From Octopus vulgaris (Eukaryota): a DNA stretch of 64,000 bases. The stretch spans positions 26,908,001 through 26,972,000 of the forward strand of contig OX597838.1 in NCBI GenBank assembly GCA_951406725.2. The letters run 5' to 3'. Positions 1 to 62,569 of this stretch are shown one piece after another; the first letter of the stretch is position 1; each line of letters starts with the position of its first letter. The position numbers and the translations under genes are program-made. The notes below the pieces were generated by a model. That model saw only the letters and a program-made list of their open reading frames with translations. It made no database searches and was not told the origin of the DNA.

Positions 1-543
1 TCTTCCAAAAGAATTTCATTACAAGAAGCAAGTTTCGTATTTCAAAAGGAATTAAGTAATTTTCGGTTAAATTACACATAAATTGTAGCTTTATCTAATG
101 AACTGAGCAGGGCTCGTTATGAATTAGAAAAACTAATTGCTATTGGTTAAATGAAATTTTGTGGTTGTTTTTATAAAAATTGTGTGTTTTTGAGAAAAGA
201 GAGAGAGAGAGAGAGAGAAAGCAAGAGTGCATATGTATGTATATAAGAATGACTGTATTAATGTATGTACATATGAATTAATGCACACATACACACAGGA
301 ACATGTAAGTACAACTGTATATAAGAATGAATGTATACATAAGCATCCATGAATGAATATACACACATACACAAATGTGTACATATATATATGTAACCAA
401 ATAAATCAAAGGAATATGCAAGTGCAAATGTGTATAAAATTAATGTATAATTGTATGTATAAATGAATGAATGCCCACATACATGGTATGTATATATACA
501 AATGAATATGTAACTATGACTGTATGTATATATGTATGTCGTT

Positions 544-927
544 CTTTTACTCTTTTACTTGTTTCAGTCATTTGACTGTGGCCATGCTGGAGTACCGCCT
601 TTAGTCGAGCAAATTGACCCCAGGATTTATTCTTTGTAAGCATAGTACTTATTATCTCAGTCTCTTTTGCTGAACCACTATGTTACAGGGATGTAAAGAC
701 ACCAGCATTGGTGATCAAGCAATGGTGGGGGGACAAACACAGACACACAAACCCATATAAACGATGGGCTTCTTTCAGTTTCCATCTACCAAATCTACCA
801 CTCACAAGGCTTTGGTCGGCCTGAGGCTGTAGTAGAAGACACTTGCCCAAGGTGCCATGCAGTAGGACTGAACCCAGAACCATGTGGTCTGTAAGCAAGC
901 TACTTACCACACAGCCAATCCTGCGCC
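544..927 (-). mobile_element. tRNA-derived SINE, family A
   Basis: Head ggcgcagga.tggctgtgtggtaag with box B ggttcagtcc, internal (TA/TG)n, tail gactgaaacaagtaaaagag. More than 15 copies in the window. Confidence 0.9.
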
Positions 928-1453
928 ATTATTCAGTTTATTTCAAGATTTCTAGCCAATAGAGAAAGAACCGGTTTCTAACCTAGATCCAAGGCTCCTT
1001 CATTGGAATTTCAACATCAACAACAGGGTATTTTTGTTCGTAGGTATGTATGTCTGTATGTATGTATGTATGATGTGCAGATTTGTATGTTTTATGTATC
1101 TACTCGCAGACATATAGTTGCATGTCTAGACATGCTCATATATATTTAAATGATAAACTTCTGAAAAGTTTTACAGATTTTTACAGTTCCAGTGATGGAT
1201 TGGGTCTGTAGTCTTCGAATCAGCTTTCTCCTTTCTGGTTTTGAGAAGCCTAATTTCTTAAGATTGGTATTTAGGCAGTGTTACATATCCCAGGGCTCCA
1301 ATAATTACAGGTATAAACCTGAACTTGTAACCTGGATAGAGTAACTGCAGATTTCTCTAAGTACCTAAGTTCAGCATAAGTGTTCTCTTTTTCACTGATC
1401 TCCAGCTTTATGTTAACATCCACTGGGCACCAAATTTCCACAACTGTGCACAT
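928..1453 (-). mobile_element. 3' end of a REL-endonuclease non-LTR retrotransposon (R4/Dong-like), frameshifted
   Basis: Frames join to VVEIWCPVDVNIKLEISEKENTYAEL / RNLQLLYPGYKFRFIPVIIGALGYVT / LKKLGFSKPERRKLIRRLQTQSITGTVKICKTF*, followed by a 3' UTR ending in a taat tail. Confidence 0.75.
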
Positions 1454-2011
1454 ATGTATGTATGTGTATATGTAGGTATGTATATGCTTATTTTACATAC
1501 AGACTTGTTTTCATTCAAAGATATTGAATGTAAACAAGTCTGTAATTAAGACGAACAGATAGTCATTACATTTGACCAACAAAATTATTATATTTGCAAT
1601 CATATATAATTTTTATATATGTATACAATAATTTCATTTGCAATCATATATAATTTTTACTAAGCTGCATCCTGCATCATCATTATGAGTACATAATAGT
1701 ACATAATTTACCAGTGCATATTGTACGCAATTAATTAATAAAACAAACACTAAAACAACAAAAAAAACAATACCAATAAAAATAAATGCAAAATAACCAA
1801 CAAATAAGTTGGTTAGAAAAAAAAAAAATTTTTCCGGTAAATAATTGTTGGTTACATGAAAAACCACAGAAAATTATTTACCATTTTTATTGAATTATAT
1901 ATATATATAGATAGATAGATAGATAGATATATATGCATATATACACACACACACACACACATATAGAAACATACAGAAAGAGAGAGAGAGAGACAGAGAC
2001 AGAGAGAGAAA

Positions 2012-2119
2012 AGAGGCAGTCAGAATTTTGGACAATTCTTTATTATTGCTTTCATTCATTTAACTAGTTAATTGATTGAAAGTGCTAATAAAGAATTATC
2101 CAAAATTCTGACTGCCTCT
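2012..2119. repeat. Near-perfect palindrome of about 108 bp (probable inverted Penelope-like terminal stub)
   Basis: agaggcagtcagaattttggacaattctttatta...taactagtta...taataaagaattatccaaaattctgactgcctct; flanked by microsatellites. Confidence 0.85.
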
Positions 2120-2830
2120 GTTTTCTCAATATGCAATATCTGTACACGACTTCAAACACTCTATACATATACATATATATAGAGAGAGAGACAGACAGAC
2201 AGACATTGATGTTCTATTTTCGTTTTCTTTTACTTGAAACCACATTTTTCATCTTTTTTCTTCGCATGTTCACCAGCATCACTGGTCATTTTGTTTGTTA
2301 ATTTTTTTTTAAAGTTTTTTTTTTAATATATAACCTACCTTCTTTTTGACACCATCACTTTGCACCTAACAGCCAAAGATCGATCAGATAATCTATACAC
2401 CCTCGGTTCAGTCAACGAAACACAGTAAACCATTTCACTACAGACCTGACCAGTCACCATTCTGCCACGCTCAGCATACAATAACACCATTATTACAGCT
2501 GAATTTTATCCTCCTCATTCTCTCTCCAAACTGTTTACTGAAATGGTTTGGAGAAAGTATTTAGTTAAATTGTTTGGTAAAAGAGAGAGAAAGATGGAGA
2601 AGAGAAGAGACGAAAACCAGCAATAATCTTCGTAATGGATTTTTCGCCAGCAGCCATACAATTCAAAGAATTGATATATAAACCGTGTGTTTATATTCAA
2701 TCTAAAGACTGATTACAATGTTATACAGGGGTTATGTATTGACCAGACACGACACACATACACACATGACAGACACTAAAACACCAAACAGCAGCAGCAG
2801 TGGCTTAGATTAAATTATATAAATAGATTA

Positions 2831-3176
2831 TCTCTCTCTATATAAACGGCAGTTTGTCTGTGCGTGTTTCTGTGTGTCTGTTAGGTTGTACCCTCACCCT
2901 GACCACGGCTTTCAACCGATTCTGATGAAACTTGACACACACATAGCCCAATGTCATAATTCAAAACTAACGCAACGAAAATTTTGAAAAGTTCCCCCAG
3001 TTCTGAAAAAAATCGATAAATTCGTCATGGGGTCGAGAATCAGAAACACAAACCGCAAACTGTCTAGGGGACGCAACTCAACCTTTTTTCATAGCTATTT
3101 TTTGGCTATAACTCTCTAAAAATGCTTTATAGTTATTTCCCTTACAAACCTGAGCAACGCCGGGCGATACTGCTAG
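2831..3176 (+). mobile_element. Non-autonomous Helitron
   Basis: Starts A|TC, ends with hairpin cctgagcaacgccggg then CTAG|T, no TSD. Second copy at 14036-14408. Confidence 0.85.
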
Positions 3177-3504
3177 TACTTTATATAAATGGATTAACTG
3201 GTTCTTTTGTTGTGGGGAGTTTTTCTATGTGTGAGTGGGTTTTTTTTTAATCTTTTTTTTTTCCTTTTTTTTTTTTTGTTTTTGTAAGCATGAAGCTCAT
3301 AATTGAATTTTCATCCTTCTGATAACAGCAGAGAACGACATCACTGTTGTTGTGATTATAAATGGCAGTGCTTCAGTTATTGTTGCTTCTCACACATTCT
3401 GCATTACAGGAATTGGCTTCTCCCTACCCAGCCATCCATCCATCTATTTTTTTTTTTTTTTACCTGGTATTTCTGGAAGGCTCACTTGCGTAATTTCCTC
3501 ACAC

Positions 3505-3775
3505 ACCTCTTCAATAAGATCCTTTCAGAAACAACCATCATTAGACAGTCTCTTACTGGATCTCCAATCATGACCAACTCAGACTAAGGACATTATCCAA
3601 CCCTCTCATTCTTGGTCGACCCCCAAGTCTCCTGCCAGTCAAAGGGCAGAGTCTTCAGGTACCTCCTCCATAGTGTTTTATCAGAAACAAATGTCATTAC
3701 ACTTCCTACTGGATCCCCAAACATGACTAACTCAGACTATGGACATTATCCAACAACCTTCTTGGTCAACCCCAG
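3505..3775. repeat. Diverged tandem duplication, period about 156 bp
   Basis: tcagaaacaa...actggatc...catgac.aactcagacta.ggacattatccaac...ttcttggtc.acccc occurs at about 3525 and 3681. Confidence 0.8.
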
Positions 3776-4726
3776 CTGGTTGGCTTGGCTTGAGGAACCT
3801 ATCTTAAGATTTTTTCAAGTGACATTCTAATCACATCTGTAGCACCAAAGCTGTGAGCTCTCAATGTGAAGAGGCACTTCTATCTAAATAAATTTTTTTT
3901 TTAAATTAAAAAAACGGGTCACAACCAGTCATCACTTGAAAGCAAGTCTCAATTGGTAACACGTACCAACTGCCACAATATTGTCATCATTTTAACACCC
4001 ATTTTCCAAATCTGGCAGGAATCAAAAGAATTTGTAGAGACAAATTTTCTATGGCCCAACATCCTTTCTTGTCAGCAACCCTTACATGTTTCCAAGCAAG
4101 GATAATATTTCCCAGAGAAGAATGGAAACGGACAACCTTGCTTGTAGGATGGTGATGCTCATTTATGACCATCATGTGATGTCTAGACAAGTTTAAACAA
4201 GCTTTCACACACATGCTTCTTTCAGTTTCCATCTACTGTACCCTGGGGTAAAAGTGTAACTGAACCTAGGACTACACAGTTGGAAAGCAAGCTTCTTAAC
4301 CACAGAGCTATACATACAGTTATATAGATAGTGAGAGATAAGGAAATATTTTTATTCTCAAACGCAGGATAATGCTATCTCAACATTTCTAAAGCAAACT
4401 TTGTTGACTTTCAACATGAGTTGAATTTAATGCATGATAGAATCTTAGAAAGCTAGATTTATATATTCTAAAATTGCAGAAGAATTTGTTGCTAGGCAGT
4501 TTAGCTTAATGGTAAAGCACTTGATGTGTAAACACAGGGATAGGAGTTTGAGTCTCATGGCCAGCTGCAAACAGATTCTTCAGCAAAATATGGATGGTTT
4601 ATCCTGTTCATGCTGTATTATTAGCATTATCCTGTGTTTGAGAATAAAATTATTTCCTTACCTGTATCTTTCAATACATCTCAACACTTCTAAAGCAAAC
4701 TTTGTTGACTTTCAATCTAAGTTGAA

Positions 4727-5528: not shown

Positions 5529-6179
5529 ATATACAGAAGTACAAAGCTAGACCCATACTATCTCAATTTTACCCACTGATTTTGTTGCATTAAGTTCCTC
5601 GCATTATACATGAATAAGTACTGTATATATCAAGTATGGCACAAGAATCCTTGCACCAGTCACATGGTGATACAGTGACTAAAGTTTCAACACCAAAACA
5701 GTGCATCTCACCTCATTCTATTCTCATAACACTCAGGTTGACTAAACCAAAATAAAATAAATAAAAATAAAAACAAAATAAAATAAAATAAAAACAACCA
5801 GTTTTTGACAGAAAAAGAAAAACTGCAAAACAGGAGAGAGATAGAGAAAGAGTGAGAGAGAGAGAGAAATCCTTGGTTGTTTCCAGAGAACATCAGTTGC
5901 CATGGATATCTCACATTACCAACTGCATTAAGCTGGATATATATTTCCAAACATTAAGTCGGGACCTAATGGTTTTCTTGTCTGGTTTTGTTTTATTGGG
6001 AGGGGTGGGGGTGAGGGGGGTTGAATGTGATGGTGGTGGTGGGGGGGGGTCGTTTTTTGGTCTATCATTGAAATAAATCCATCTTCCTCCGTGAGGCCAC
6101 CCCCCCCATCATCCCTGTGTATGCTACCATCGTTACACTTCATTTGTCACAACGACTGAAATTACAACGACCATTCATA

Positions 6180-7000
6180 TCACCATGATCTACCTTCACC
6201 ACCACCACCACCACTCCCATCATCCTCAACATAACAACTACCACCACCACCACCATGACCACAACCATCATCATAATCATCATTATTACCAACATCATCT
6301 CTACAACAGCTGTCATCACCAGTGTCATCACCATCATCACTAACACCGCAACTGTCAGAACCCTTCCCTAATACAAGCATCAGTACTACTGTTAACCACC
6401 AGCATCACCACTACCACCACTATAACCAATAGCACCAACATCCTTGTCTCCATCGCCACCTCCTCCCACCATCACCAACCCCTTTGTCATTACCTGTTAC
6501 CATTATCACCACCAACACCACCAACACCACCACCACCATCAGCTGGATATATTTCTAAACATTAAGTTGGGACCTAATGATTTTCTGGGGGGGGGGGGGG
6601 ATCTTACCATTACTACCACCACCATCTCCACAACAATCACCATCAGTATTATCACAATCTATCACTGCTACCATAACTGCCATCATCACCACCACCACCA
6701 CCACCACAACAACAACAACAACCATCAGCACCAATGCCATTGCCGCCATCACCACCTCCTTCCACCATCATCACTGCAACCATCAACACCACCACCCACC
6801 ACCAGCATCATCATCATCATCACTTCCATCATTGCTATCATTATCTTAACATTGCTACCACCACTACCACCACCATCTCCATTACCACCACCACCACCAC
6901 TACCACCACCACCATCACTATTACTACCACCATCACCACAACCACCACCACCACCATCACTATTGTTGGTGCCACCACCACTACCGCCGCCACCTTTATT
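6180..7000. repeat. Low-complexity (CAC/CAT)n region
   Basis: Degenerate trinucleotide repeats giving poly-H/P/T ORFs. Confidence 0.9.
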
Positions 7001-7729
7001 ATTCTTAGTTTTCTGTTTCACTTGTTTCCTTTCTCTCCAAATAATGCTGTTGTAGCTGCCCTTTTAAGGGCGGAAACAAATCAATACTCACACTTTAGGG
7101 GTCAGTGCAGAACATTATTTGTATAGGATTTACAGGGTCTAACATTTTCTCTCTCTCTCTCAACCAAACTACCTCTCTCTCACACACACACACACACAAG
7201 CATACATCTGCACACACAAATTCATATTAACATACATATATATATATATATTCACACATACACACCCACAAACACACAAGTATACATGCAGTCGCCACCC
7301 CACCCCCACATACATGCACACTCACATAAATACATATAAAAGGTACACACACACACACACACACACACAAAAGCTTACACACACAAAAACACACACACAC
7401 ACACACAAAAGCATGCACACACACACAAAAGCATGCACACACACACACACAAAAGCATACACACACATAAGCATACACACACATAAGCATGCACACACAT
7501 AAGCATGCACACACACACACACATCATTTTATCTGCCTCTGAATCCCTTTATTTAAAGACAAACCCCTAAATATCAAACCAACACCATATGAATGAGTAT
7601 GGAGTCAACAAGTGACTATGTGGTTACTAGACCTGCTAGAAACGTCAACCAAATCCCCTACAAATTACAACACCTTATCATCTTAAAAAAGAAGGGAAGG
7701 ACACAGATAATTCTAATTTTGGCACATCT

Positions 7730-8412
7730 TTTATCCTTTACTTGTTTCAGTCATAACACCGTGGCCATGCTGGGGCACTGCTGAGAAGAATTTTAGTCAA
7801 ATGAATCAACACTGGTACCATTTTTTGAAGCCTGGTACTTATCCTATCTGTAAGTAATGGAGACATAAATACTCCCACACTGGTTGTCAAGCAATATTAG
7901 GGGACAAACACAAACCATACACATTATATATATGTTATATATACCTGTGCCAATGGCATGTAAAAAGCACCATCTGAGCGAGGTCGACACCAGTGTCACT
8001 GGACTGGCTCCCGTGCCGGTGGCACATAAAAAGCACCATTTGAGTGTGGTCCATGCCAGTGCCACCTGACTGGCCCCCATGCCGGTGGCATGTAAAAAGC
8101 ACCCACTACATTCTCAGAGTAGTTGGCGTTAGGTAGAAACCTTGCCAGATCAGATTGGAGCCTGGCGCAGCCTCCCGGCTTGCCAGTCCCCAGTGGACAT
8201 TAAATGATGATGGTGATGATGATAATGATGATATATATATACACACATGACGGACTTCTTTCACTGTCTACCAAATCTACTCACAAGGCTTTGGTTGGGC
8301 TGAGGCAAGTAAAAACACTTGCCCAAGGTGCCATGCAGTGGGACTGAACCCAGAGGTGCCATGCAATGGAACTGAACCCAGAGGTGCCATGCAATGGAAC
8401 TGAACCCAGATG
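7730..8412 (-). mobile_element. Family A SINE interrupted by an RTE-LINE 3' UTR fragment (about 7944-8230, plus strand)
   Basis: SINE tail at 7730-7915, then repeated gtgccggtggcatgtaaaaagcacc units and a gatgat tail, then the SINE resumes at 8245 with a triplicated head segment. Confidence 0.75.
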
Positions 8413-26408: not shown

Positions 26409-26932
26409 ATATATATATATATATATATATATACCGGAGTAAACACATAAATGTGAAACAAGGTGGAAAAAAGAGTACTCAAATACCAGTGGTAGAGTAA
26501 TATGCTTTATATATATATATATATATATATAAATATAATTTCCAAGATTCAAGAGAATCAGTTATTTGAATAATAAAGCACTAATGTCAGGTCGGTGATA
26601 GCACTATCATGTACAAACAATATTTAAGGACAAATCCGTATTTAGTAAAGTAAACACGGATTTGTGCTCCAGTTGTGCATACAATCACAAATGGCTGACT
26701 GAATACACAAGTTGTCAAGGTCACATATGGGTACACTCACTTCACCTACTGCACTGCATTCTATAATCTCTAGATACAAACTAATTGCAGGTTCTGAGTC
26801 AGGCAAATAATAAATAACAACACAAGGATTGTGATTCACTACAGCTGTTTCAGATGTGTTTTTTTTATTGATGAACAGAAGTGTTACATGATGCAAAAAA
26901 ATGATGTTCAAAATGTTTAATTCTTACTTGTA

Positions 26933-27020
26933 TTCACCTGATGAAAACAGGGTTTTTTTTGCATGATGTAACATTTCTGTTCATCAATTAAAAAAACATG
27001 CTTGAAACAGCTGTAGTGAA
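26933..27020 (+). ncRNA. Minimal type I hammerhead ribozyme motif
   Basis: ttcac-CTGATGA(26938-44)-long stem II-GAAA(27004-07)-C-AGCT-GTA^gtgaa. Stem I is ttcac/gtgaa; stem III ACAGCTGT is a perfect palindrome. Confidence 0.75.
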
Positions 27021-27062
27021 ACACAATCCATCTGTTCTTATTTGTGTGTGTGTTTGTGTGTG

Positions 27063-27450
27063 TAGGTGCAGGCATGGCTGTGTGGTAAGAGGATTGCTTC
27101 CCAATCACAGGGTTCTGGGATCAGTCCCACTGCATTGTACCTTGGGCAAGTGTCTTCTACTATAGCCTAGGACCAACCAAAGCCTTATGCGTAGATATGG
27201 TAGACAGAAACTGAAAGAAGCCTGTCGTGTGTGTGTGTATGCATGTGTGTGCGTCCCATCACTGCTTGACAATTAATGTTGGTGTGTTTATGTCTGTGTA
27301 ACATAACAGTTTAGCAAAAGAGACCGCGAGAATAAGTGCCAGACTTAACAAAAAAATGAGTACTGGGGTCGATTCATTCAACTAGAAATTCTTCAAGGTG
27401 GCGCTCCAGTATGGCCACAGTCAAATGACTGAAACAAGTCAAACAGAACA
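27063..27450 (+). mobile_element. Family A SINE
   Basis: Head aggtgcaggcatggctgtgtggtaag to tail gactgaaacaagt. Confidence 0.85.
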
Positions 27451-27989
27451 GATAAAGAAAGATATGTCACCTTCCTTGGCTAAAATATTTGTCTATAGCT
27501 TTGAAGTTTGCGGGGACCAAATTCCTGTTGACACTTGAGTAAATTCAGGGAATGCAGAATAAGGTGTTTTGTTCAAAGTCACATGACACACTTGCGACAG
27601 GTTTGGGGGCAGAGGTATGACAGAGGATGGGGTGGCAGGCAGTAGAGGATTACAAACATCTGACTGCCTGGGTGCCAGATCAAGTGAGGACCACCGGAAG
27701 GGAAGGCAATAAAAACGACAAACAAGTGTAGCTTCAACAGTTTCTTTTTTGTTATGTTGATTTGTTTTCTGTGACCCAGGCACTCAGTGAACTCTGTTGA
27801 ACGGCTCAGTAGTCGATACATATGGAATGAAATGTGGTGGGCTAAGTTGGATAGGCTTGGCTTGGACTGGGCTTAGTTGGGCTGGGTTTTTATTTCTTTT
27901 CTTTCCGCTGGTTGATTTGTTCTTGACACACCATAAACCAGGAGAATAAAAGCTTTTGACGGTGTTCCAATGATTAATTTATGCTTTCT

Positions 27990-28389
27990 CTTTCTCTTTT
28001 TACTTGTTTCAGTCATTTTGACTGCGGCCATGCTGGTGCACCGCCTTTAATCGAGCAACTCGACCTCGGGACTTATTCTTTGTAAGCCCAGTACTTATTC
28101 TATTGGTCTTTTTTGCCGAACCGCTAAGTGACGGGGACATAAACACACCAGCATCGGTTGTCAAGTAATGCTAGGGGGACAAACACAGACACACAAACAT
28201 ACACGCACATACATATATATACATATATACGACGGGCTTCTTTCAGTTTCCATCTACCAAATCCACTCACAAGGCTTTGGTCGGCCCGAGGCTATAGTAG
28301 AAGACACTTGCCCAAGGTGTCACGCAGTGGGACTGAACCCGGAACCATGTGGTTGGTAAACAAGCTACTTACCACACAGCCACTCCTGC
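27990..28389 (-). mobile_element. Family A SINE (young)
   Basis: Near consensus, CpGs retained. Confidence 0.9.
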
Positions 28390-36418: not shown

Positions 36419-36950
36419 CATCATCATCATCATCGTTTAACGTCCATTTTCTGTGCTAGCACGGGTTGGACGGTTCAACTGGGGTCTGGGAAGCCAGGAG
36501 GCTGCACCAAGCCCAGTCTGATCTGGCAGTGTTTCTACAGCTTGATGTCCTTCCTAACGCCAACCACTCCGTGAGTGTAGTGGGTGCTTTTTACATGCCA
36601 CCGGCACAGAAGCCAGTCAAGGCAGCGCTGGCATCAGCCACATTCGAATGGTGCTTTTTACATGCCACCGGCACAGGTATCACAACTACTATTTCCATTT
36701 GATATTTATTTCGATGTTCATGTACTTGACTCAATAGGTCTCCTCAAGCACAGCAGGTTGTTCTGAAATCCAAGGTACTTTGAATGGGCTGGGGCTATGC
36801 AGAACTGGTGCAGGAAGCAGCCCGGGTCTTTGCAGTCACAGCATATCTCCAGAGATCTCCGTCCTTCGTCATTGCCTCTGTGAGGCCCAACGCTCTAAGG
36901 TCATGCTTGACCACCTCATCCCATGTCTTCCTGGGTCTACCTCTCCCCCT
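36419..36950 (-). mobile_element. 5'-truncated RTE-clade LINE (ORF C-terminus plus 3' UTR)
   Basis: RGRGRPRKTWDEVVKHDLRALGLTEAMTKDGDLWRYAV is typical of RTE C-termini; (GAT)n tail. Confidence 0.85.
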
Positions 36951-37592
36951 ATATATATATATATATAGATATATGTATGTATTTGAGTAGTACACCCTTG
37001 GTTATGGCAATAACCAAAGAGAGAGTAACCATTGGTTTCACACCTACTATCACATCTACAAATATTGATATTGCCCATTACTATAGTAGACATGAAGCTA
37101 ATCATAACTTTCTGACCTGGTTATTGCCCGAACCAAGGATATAATACTCACATACATGAAAGTATAATTACTGAAAATTTTTTTCAGAATGTGTTTTTTT
37201 TTCTGACTTATAGCAACTGACTGAGGTTATAATATTTCATATAGGGTGGCAAAGAAATTGTAATGTTGCAAACTGAATGCCTTTCCTACAGATATTATCA
37301 TAGAAGCAGAAAGGCCAAATGGGTGAGGTTTGTCTTCGTGAATTTTCAGTTCAATTTTGATGACAGTCGTCTATGAAATAAATAAATAAATATACAAATT
37401 TCATGCCTTGTCAAGTTTTATGGAGAGTCATGTATAGTTTGTCGGTCATTCAACCATGTCCATTTCCTAAATGACTGGATGTTGGGTAAACAACTAAAGA
37501 CAACAACAATACCCAAATGCCACAGTTGCAGTCACACCTAGTATGTTTAAGAATTAAATTACCTATTTACTAACATGACTGATATATATATA

Positions 37593-37974: not shown

Positions 37975-38287
37975 GTATATAATAATTATTTGGATCTTGG
38001 GTATATGGTTAGTAATATGCTGAGTAAAGCACTTTCACCGCTTAGGCTACCTGATGTTATCCACAGTAACGATATAATTGTCACTGGATCGGCATTAGGA
38101 ATTTTGCAGTATTTGTTGAGTTTATAAAGAATGAGGGGAAACAGAAAATGGAGTTTGCAAGAATCTTTATCAACACAATGATCATTTCAAACCATCCTGT
38201 GTCTATATGATGGGTCGAAATGATAATTATGTTGAATAAAGATTCTTGCTAACTCCATCTTCCATTTCCCTCATTCATTATATATTC

Positions 38288-38324
<37 letters not shown>

Positions 38325-42897: not shown

Positions 42898-43521
42898 CAT
42901 TTCATCGAGGGACTTCAAATCACAGGTAATAATCTGTTTCCTGGGAGGTGGTGGTTCACCGGCTAGTTCTGCTTCGATTTCTTCTTCCATTTGTACAATT
43001 GTGGGGGCCAGCATGCCAAACTTGGCACCAACCCGAGCCACTTCCAATAAGCAGAGAACCACACTTCGTTCATTTTTTCGTAAAACCAAATCATCGGTTT
43101 CGAACCTGAGAACCTCCGGTATTCCCAGTTCTCGACACCACGATATAAAGTTAGACACATTATCTCTGGCCTGAAAAGTCTGTGCTTTCACCTCTTTACG
43201 AAATTGAATCTCAGTTTGAGGAATATCACGTATGAACTGAGATTTGGTAGAGAGTCTCTTTTGTTGGTCCAGGGCGAATTTTCGGACTTCGTTCGCATGC
43301 TTACACAATTCGACCCCGGTCTCTAAGATTTCGAAGAAATTATCTACGTTGATGGACTTTTTATAGAGACAGGTAAACCAGTCTGCCAGATCTTCCTTCA
43401 TGGCATAAAGATACTCATCTTTGCTTTTAAATGGTTTGAAAGACTTGGGTTCCAGAATCAGGATGGTCTCTGTGCTACCAGAGCCTGGGTTCGGGGACGG
43501 ATATGTATCGGTGCTCTCCAT
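42898..43521 (-). CDS. First coding exon (208 codons) of a GAS2/GAS2-like protein (calponin-homology domain)
   Basis: ORF contains GAS2-family motifs (PFKSKDEYLYAMKEDLADW, ETGVELCKHAN, FQARDNVSNFISWCRELGIPEVLRFETDDLVLRKNERSVVLCLLEVAR, APTIVQMEEEIE). Start context is gccATGg. The frame runs into a canonical donor ATG|GTAAGT (42897-42892, phase 0) just after DLKSLDEM. The paralogue (GAS2L1/L2/pigs-like) cannot be assigned. Confidence 0.95.
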
Positions 43522-54960: not shown

Positions 54961-55520
54961 ACAGGTTGCGAGAGGTATTTGAGGACAAAGTTGGTAATTT
55001 GATAAAACAACTTTAATGTCGCCAAATCCAAATGTATTTCACTAAAAATTTTTGCACATCTTCTCGATAATATTTCTCATAGGATTATTTAATGAATCCG
55101 CCTTCAGTTTCAATGACTGCTTCAGTGCAGGACTGGAACTGTTGATATGCCTGCACTAAATGCACCTTATTCATTTCGGACAATTCACTATGGATAATGG
55201 TAATTTCGTAAAGATGTCGACAACACACCCTTGGGATTTAAATCTGGTAAGTTTGTGGACTGTTACATGTTACACGAATTTGATGTTACATGATCGTGAA
55301 GAATGCATGACGGCCATTCTTGGGTTACGCAGACTTTATGAGAAATTGCTGAGTCTTGTCGAAACACCTATGGCCTTCCATCGCATCCTTCATACATCCA
55401 GTATTTGACAACTGTCCCTGGCAGCTCATCGTATCCAGCAGTGATAAGTCCAAAACCCTGTGGAAAGATGTGAGACGGCATACCATGACCTTTGTTACTC
55501 GCCACTTCTAAAACCATCAG
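54961..55520 (-). mobile_element. Tc1/mariner (maT-like) transposon 3' fragment, decayed transposase
   Basis: Minus-strand remnants GHGMPSHIFPQG..., PDLNP, HLVQAYQQFQSCTEAVIETEGGFIK*; terminus aggtatttgaggaca shared with 16990. Confidence 0.75.
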
Positions 55521-55583
55521 AGTTACGAGAAACTCAGTGTGCATTACTCTGGAACCAGCAGAAAAATTTGCATATAATCATCT

Positions 55584-58441: not shown

Positions 58442-59011
58442 CTTGTCTTAGCATCAACATTGTTTTGAGAGAATATTCTCATAATGTGGTCGCTGGCATG
58501 ACTGTGTGGGTAGGAGGCTTGCTTTGCAACCTCATAGCTTTGGGTTCAGTCCCACAGTGCAGCACTTCAGTGTCATCTACTATATATATATATAATTAAT
58601 AATATCAAGGGTAATGAGAAATATTAGAAATTTCAGATCTTTTCCTTTTGATTGACTGAATTCAACACAATTTCTAGTTAACTAAACAATTTGAAACTTC
58701 GTATACTGGTAGAATGTGTCAAAAGAAAACATTATTTTCACTTGGCTTTTTTGATAAATTTGTAATTCGTTTGTTTAACGTAGTTTAATTTTTCGAATTT
58801 TAACCAATCGTATGCTCTCTTTTGAGCTGAAATCATTTTCTGCGTTATCGATATTGATAAACAAATGAGGAGGCAGTGGCCTAGCGTGTAAAAATTTAGT
58901 CAATAGACTATATATTATTCATATAAATACAGTGTACATTTAAACACATAAGAGGCATCCATCATAGGACTCCTTGGGATGTCTCTTACATGTTTAAATG
59001 TACACTGCATT

Positions 59012-59050
<39 letters not shown>

Positions 59051-61739: not shown

Positions 61740-61893
61740 AAAAAAATAACAAAATACATTATTTTGGGACAATTGTTGCGCATTAATGAATTAAATGTAA
61801 TTTTATCAAAATGGATTTATTTGATAAAATTACATTTAATTCATTAATAGCGAAACAATTGTCCCAAAATAATCTGTATTTTTGTTATTTTTT
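61740..61893. repeat. Long palindrome (about 70-bp arms, 9-nt spacer), probable Penelope-like inverted stub
   Basis: Arms 61740-61810 and 61820-61893; right arm holds GAAACAATTGTC. Confidence 0.88.
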
Positions 61894-62470: not shown

Positions 62471-62569
62471 TTTTCACTTTCCTGAGGAGAAGATTGCATT
62501 GTTTATACCATTTGTTTATACTTTTGAATAGTATCAGTGGAATTTTCGAAACATGTGTCGAAAGTAAAA
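62471..62569 (+). ncRNA. Minimal type I hammerhead ribozyme motif
   Basis: actttc-CTGAGGA(62482-88)-stem II gaagattgcattg/cagtggaattttc-GAAA(62548-51)-C-ATGT-GTC^gaaagt. Stem I is actttc/gaaagt. Confidence 0.8.

Follow-up and report, generated by a model that had tools for sequence, protein, structure and literature searches.

The window analysed here is a 64,000-nucleotide (64-kb) stretch of Octopus vulgaris DNA (GenBank assembly GCA_951406725.2, contig OX597838.1, positions 26,908,001 to 26,972,000), and all positions below count from its first letter. The presumed host gene of the locus under study enters the window with its first coding exon, 42898-43521 on the minus strand, which ends in a GTAAGT donor. 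This CH-domain exon (43521-42898) is identical to residues 1-208 of P0001, a CH plus GAR protein of Octopus sinensis whose relatives carry GAS2-like names. An earlier note on this DNA had placed the locus in an intron of a GAS2-like gene: the exon is real, and the downstream exon lies outside the window, since no next GAS2-like exon was found in the 64 kb. If the assembly is collinear, the intron likely measures at least 42.9 kb, with the locus 15.9 kb inside it. On the plus strand, about 70 codons at 23128-23340 read like real protein, with no Pfam match and no second copy in the window. Should this stretch belong to a plus-strand gene as an exon, the intact hammerhead motif described below might not be antisense only.

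The locus spans about 500 bases and consists of two copies of one sequence family that meet head to head at 26901/26902. The long arm (26546-26901, minus strand) is a family copy truncated at its 5' end: it begins within helix II of a hammerhead, has no CUGAUGA and continues about 290 nt beyond the cleavage site. The short arm (26902-27043, plus strand) is a second 5'-truncated copy and contains the entire hammerhead motif. The complementary part of the long arm (26812-26901, minus strand) is identical to 26954-27043 at 79 of 90 positions, and the inverted repeat folds with -113.9 kcal/mol (z -15.8). Past this repeat the minus-strand copy extends for about 270 nt, to around 26546, and the 3' ends of the two arms are accordingly some 270 nt apart. 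Each arm thus has family sequence of its own, 26902-26953 in the short arm and 26546-26811 in the long one. The earlier note had reported an inverted copy of the 3' part of the motif at 26826-26900, devoid of CUGAUGA. That copy is present and slightly wider (26812-26901), and the minus strand of 26000-28000 contains no CUGANGA. The labelling of the arms had to be corrected, however, in that it is the long arm that lacks the core and runs in host-gene sense, and the short arm that has the intact core. Within the long arm, 26835-26851 (minus strand, host-gene sense) comprises the substrate half of a hammerhead, with GAAA, the palindrome, the cleavage base and the 3' strand of helix I.

The long arm's 3' end adjoins a (TA)n microsatellite (26508-26537), the likely insertion target. 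(TA)n occurs at this flank only, and no target-site duplication of at least 6 nt was found at the locus. On the other side the short arm is bordered by a GT-rich tract and then by an unrelated high-copy repeat (27063-27465, plus strand; up to 19-fold self-coverage in the window), which we take to be SINE-like. Neither a tandem unit nor a tRNA was found at the locus, and there is no second family copy within the 64-kb window. Just left of the long arm, two (TA)n tracts enclose 76 nt (26432-26507) that occur once in the window and may represent a further small insertion into that same microsatellite.

Every hammerhead part that the earlier note had described was recovered, by descriptor and in the sequence, at 26933-27020 on the plus strand. 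Helix I pairs 26933-26937 with 27016-27020 (5 bp), and the CUGAUGA core (26938-26944) is followed by a 59-nt helix II domain (26945-27003) that includes the apical stem named in that note. GAAA (27004-27007) leads into helix III, the perfect 8-nt palindrome ACAGCTGT (27007-27014), and the predicted cut falls after A27015. The motif is of type I: it has the CUGANGA and GAAA core, an A15.1-U16.1 pair, a non-G cleavage base and an open helix I. The base pair of helix II is A-U, where the consensus has G-C (G10.1-C11.1). In the 64-kb window the hammerhead descriptor matched twice, at 26938 and 62482, against a chance expectation per window of 0.09 for its loose form and 0.01 for its strict form (100 dinucleotide-preserving shuffles), and the motif at 26933-27020 is far above chance. 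As a control, a looser core pattern was run on viral contigs and matched 70 stretches, with 55 distinct matches; helix I did not exceed 2 bp in any of the 55, and blastn showed no similarity for any of them. Rfam as a whole, hammerhead models included, gave no match at the gathering threshold anywhere in the window, and the 23 Rfam matches at E<=10 in 26300-27300, all sub-threshold, included no hammerhead.

Taken in isolation, the motif is not more stable than its shuffles (z -0.90), and its active fold sits 6.0 kcal/mol over the free ensemble. The upper part of helix II folds; the basal pairs are weak and are unpaired in the constrained fold. The palindrome ACAGCTGT forms a self-duplex of -11.1 kcal/mol. 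As a double hammerhead, two monomers reach -39.5 kcal/mol, compared with -34.6 kcal/mol for two free monomers, and the best dimer fold, at -44.9 kcal/mol, leaves the double-hammerhead fold 5.4 kcal/mol above it.

In the second complete motif of the window (62476-62565, plus strand), helix II is again exactly 59 nt long, its base pair is G-C and helix III is near-palindromic. The helix II sequences of the motifs at 26938 and 62482 are unrelated, in agreement with the earlier note, which had seen no relation outside the core: their local alignment scored 12 against a shuffled mean of 15.4, and 283 of 300 shuffles scored as high. Because its active fold costs only 2.6 kcal/mol, the motif at 62482 is, by modelled folding, the better candidate for cleavage. 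A further structure, the 90%-perfect palindrome at 61741-61893, has arms with the 3' half of a hammerhead, which includes the palindrome ACAATTGT and lacks CUGANGA; its half-motif at 61852 has no CUGANGA core upstream. The plus arm extends about 120 nt, to about 62010, where it ends at a (TA)n tract, and the whole looks like a third, unrelated family of the same head-to-head build.

To place the locus among its relatives, contigs of four out of 24 listed public runs, three of the four guessed to be DNA, were aligned to 26540-27050 at 80% likeness. The three guessed-DNA runs yielded 807, 806 and 727 contigs on this 511-nt stretch, the majority of them less than 95% alike. Summed over contigs, depth reached 6,100-7,800 in the two bins that contain the 5' core and as much as 22,000 in the 3' half, and near-identical single contigs had a depth of 40-62. 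Because the summed depth lies far above that of single contigs, the data point to a hundred or more family copies, although depth is no copy number. The family is a dispersed, multi-copy octopus repeat. No RNA run was listed among those that carry the sequence; in the fourth run, guessed to be RNA but possibly DNA, one contig covered 26644-26850 with no differences.

The stretch 26540-26811, which the earlier note had treated as flank, had a depth of 450-4,000 and is likewise repetitive. One contig of 680 nt (X6 record 25) has, on a single strand and separated by 114 nt, 26546-26705 and the reverse complement of 26903-27047; the joints 26705/27047, 26754/27045 and 26901/26950 agree with this collinearity. 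Therefore, 26546-26811 belongs to the family as its 3' continuation. The same contig holds 198 additional nt upstream of the hammerhead that are absent from the window. Four of the 32 listed pieces start at 26546; the end of the long arm is only approximate, because five pieces reach the alignment edge at 26540. Where family depth rises, the 3' extension of the long arm contains a 42-nt hairpin (26627-26668), possibly a protein-binding or priming stem.

Within the core, none of the 40 listed difference rows (of 288) fell. Loose-end consensuses (agreement 0.64-0.72) indicate that subfamilies keep the U-run/A-run stem of helix II; the apical pair of helix II is C-G at this locus and U-A or U-G in other subfamilies (three runs), which we read as a compatible change. 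Family patterns had no match in viral contigs, metagenomes or prokaryote genomes, and short words of the family were absent from the three literature supplements searched. Among the papers listed in searches, outside Repbase and Dfam, for octopus or cephalopod hammerheads and for an extended helix II, none described a corresponding family; those two collections may already have an entry for it as a repeat.

The contigs also bear on how the two arms came to face each other. Among the 15 listed joints (129 in all), seven have the head-to-head geometry at other breakpoints, two of them with a known junction of 7-9 nt and five with undetermined intervening sequence; one of the seven could be an allele of the 26901/26902 locus. 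The other eight we read as collinear copies that have deletions or contain divergent parts. A MITE or foldback DNA transposon, with a hammerhead-like pattern that arose by chance in its terminal inverted repeats, would account for the 90-nt inverted arms, and the window does hold other palindromic elements, one of them beside a transposase-like fragment. However, single copies of the family are collinear and the inversion breakpoints vary, unlike fixed terminal repeats; the family runs 270 nt past one arm; and the motif has every core feature, with 0.01 expected by chance. We regard this reading as largely refuted already and give it hardly any credence. The other palindromes are a 250-nt one (17057-17308 and 17370-17639, plus strand) beside a 90-codon frame that looks to us like a Tc1/mariner transposase fragment, and three of 120-170 nt without hammerhead features (2004-2127, 38117-38288 and 58909-59029). 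Two frames elsewhere in the window (36798-37001 and 55328-55577, both minus strand) resemble decayed LINE (RTE-like) fragments.

Alternatively, a single copy could have been inserted and the inverted arm added later by a local fold-back duplication or deletion at the DNA level. The unequal arm lengths, the lack of a visible target duplication and the fact that the short arm stops at a GT-rich tract beside another repeat would all suit such an event. A simple copy of one arm, though, would not give each arm family sequence that is missing from the other, and the same geometry recurs at other breakpoints in the contigs and in the unrelated hammerhead-half palindrome at 61741-61893. We therefore consider a later fold-back quite improbable.

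Insertion units of comparable architecture are described for Penelope-like elements (PLEs). In the consulted parts of the literature, PLE insertions carry an inverted 5'-truncated copy beside their 5' end (PMC8557442), and the inverted copies are mostly head to head, an arrangement attributed to self-priming, and one of the arms may be longer (PMC3846280). The pLTRs of animal PLEs contain minimal type I hammerheads with a small palindromic helix III; these are mostly scattered as truncated remnants and sometimes occur as opposite-strand pairs 100-700 bp apart (available text of PMC4209133). For octopus PLEs, (TA)n is a listed insertion preference in the portion of the PMC8557442 supplement consulted, and according to the accessible part of the PMC13282606 supplement, PLEs make up 6.83% of the O. 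vulgaris genome in 190 families. What is found at the octopus locus, an inverted 5'-truncated copy in head-to-head position and a hammerhead within a dispersed terminal repeat, corresponds to this picture.

Compared in detail with endonuclease-positive PLE insertion units, as far as the consulted sections of PMC8557442 and PMC3846280 describe them, the locus shares the truncation of both arms, their head-to-head arrangement, the longer 3' end of one arm, the hammerhead in the repeat, the (TA)n flank and membership in a dispersed family. It differs from them in that neither this copy nor the family has a linked ORF, in a 3' overhang of about 270 nt where the usual PLE tail is 30-40 nt, and in that no target duplication is seen. 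With the minimal PLE hammerheads of PMC4209133 (available text), the motif shares the 5-bp helix I, the CUGANGA/GAAA/NUH core, a palindromic helix III suited to dimers and the arrangement in opposite-strand pairs 100-700 bp apart. The descriptor for these, as given there (Cervera and de la Pena 2014; PMC4209133), specifies a helix II of 3-7 bp with a loop of 3-10 nt. The palindromic helix III and short helix I agree with that description; helix II departs from it both in length (59 nt, where the descriptor allows about 26 at most) and in having A-U for the consensus G10.1-C11.1, and the octopus partner copy has no core. A precedent for a long helix II is PLE-X1_sMoe of Selaginella, with a 53-nt helix II domain (PMC8557442 supplement, accessible part). 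In that same part of the supplement, the sole octopus PLE hammerhead seen tabulated is Hydra-1_Obim. Like the present motif, it is a type I hammerhead from octopus with (TA)n (File S2, PMC8557442, as far as consulted); its helix II, in contrast, is short and its sequence unlike. Six family words of 11-14 nt were not found in the PMC8557442 supplement.

By motif scan, the 64-kb window contains no PLE-like coding stretch (RT or GIY-YIG). An 85-codon open frame runs through the long arm in host-gene sense (26899-26645, minus strand; P about 0.02 on one strand) and was tested because the ORF of an Anolis element begins in helix II (PMC11167929, available text). It has no homologue, its 93-aa form has no Pfam match, and for want of a homologue it was dropped as a PLE ORF start. 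A donor-like 9-mer at 26740 (minus strand, host-gene sense; P about 0.03) matched a pattern picked post hoc and is not counted as evidence. The earlier proposal of a PLE-type inverted 5'-truncated architecture thus gains from the collinear copies and the further head-to-head junctions, and loses in that its arms were mislabelled and no RT or GIY-YIG sequence is tied to the family. For the latter reason the PLE origin stays an inference from architecture, and on that comparison the locus is likely PLE-derived.

The lack of linked coding sequence would also fit a family that never coded, that is, a non-autonomous, retrozyme-like derivative moved in trans by a PLE protein, with the locus itself formed in the same way. 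Type I hammerheads of animal repeats often reside in retrozymes (PMC7229834), and retrozymes have been proposed to derive from pLTRs (bioRxiv 10.64898/2026.07.22.740005, accessible text). As in metazoan non-LTR retrozymes (PMC7229834), the type I hammerhead here lies in an AT-rich non-coding animal repeat. However, neither the locus nor one other copy is built of direct tandems of 150-450 bp, each with a hammerhead; the octopus copies are not in direct tandem, and no tandem unit is found at the locus. Moreover, the 680-nt contig implies a unit of more than about 600 nt, whereas retrozyme monomers have 150-450 bp (PMC7229834), and the motif has a minimal build of PLE type, not a canonical one. 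We consider this derivation unlikely.

The earlier note had also held that the host pre-mRNA would not be cut, its reason being that the intact ribozyme is antisense to the gene. The claim holds, and there is a stronger reason for it: on either strand, the cleavage segment is predicted to be hidden within the hairpin. In plus-strand read-through transcripts the antisense arm is made first; active folding would then cost about 70 kcal/mol, and 27004-27020 is paired with the upstream arm with a probability of 0.94-1.0. The host pre-mRNA has no catalytic core and retains the entire substrate half (26851-26835, minus strand), which is paired with the other arm with a probability of 0.86-1.0. Since the 90-bp hairpin is predicted to bury the cleavage site, the transcript of neither strand should be cut. 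Even a true PLE hammerhead could fail to cleave as a monomer, since the available texts report no monomer cleavage and low dimer cleavage (PMC4209133) and, in another case, cleavage that needed the element's protein (PMC11167929).

A hairpin this stable on both strands might instead have been kept for a host role, as an intronic hairpin for A-to-I editing or small RNAs, or as an active ribozyme in an antisense transcript. Between the arms, the 18 nt that surround the cleavage site do not differ, and runs with two organism labels contain near-identical contigs of the locus. Yet at 12% divergence 18 identical bases are expected with a probability near 0.1 by our arithmetic, and miRNA hairpin models match only below threshold. 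Furthermore, the arms differ at 11 of 90 positions and each deviates from the family majority at sites of its own, a pattern expected of neutral decay. A retained host role is, in our estimation, very improbable.

Weighing these data, we think it probable that the locus is a head-to-head pair of truncated copies, likely of a PLE pLTR, that was inserted once into (TA)n and whose hairpin is predicted to block cutting. In this PLE scenario, reverse transcription would have started about 290 nt 3' of the ribozyme and stopped within helix II, at 26901. The second copy would then have been added in the opposite direction by self-priming or a template switch, as proposed in the consulted part of PMC3846280. 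In the parent element, the ribozyme would likely have acted as a dimer through its 8-nt palindrome, perhaps with the element's protein. Thereafter neutral decay likely acted on both arms (11 of 90 nt now differ), and on the calibration of PMC13282606 we roughly estimate an age of 10-30 My. The locus is probably an ordinary, harmless fossil.

The octopus locus is a hammerhead repeat of known architecture, with the long helix II as its one unusual trait. By itself it carries little weight, as it has the look of a decayed PLE stump, one among many. However, both complete motifs in the 64-kb window (26938 and 62482) have a 59-nt helix II, which is beyond published PLE descriptors; therefore, standard descriptors and Rfam probably undercount cephalopod ribozymes. 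A bolder reading, which we regard as a long shot, is that several unrelated octopus PLE families with a helix II of about 60 nt evade searches and cut host RNAs in trans, and that inverted arms mask the sites, so that intronic insertions persist. Trans cutting would be possible in that reading because sense-strand stumps with the palindrome, the cleavage base and the helix I strand are ready substrates for a dimeric ribozyme. If it were true, head-to-head insertions would survive in introns through masking of the substrate site by the inverted arm. Families such as this one offer many natural copies for testing the function of PLE hammerheads and the purging of intact sense-strand copies from introns.
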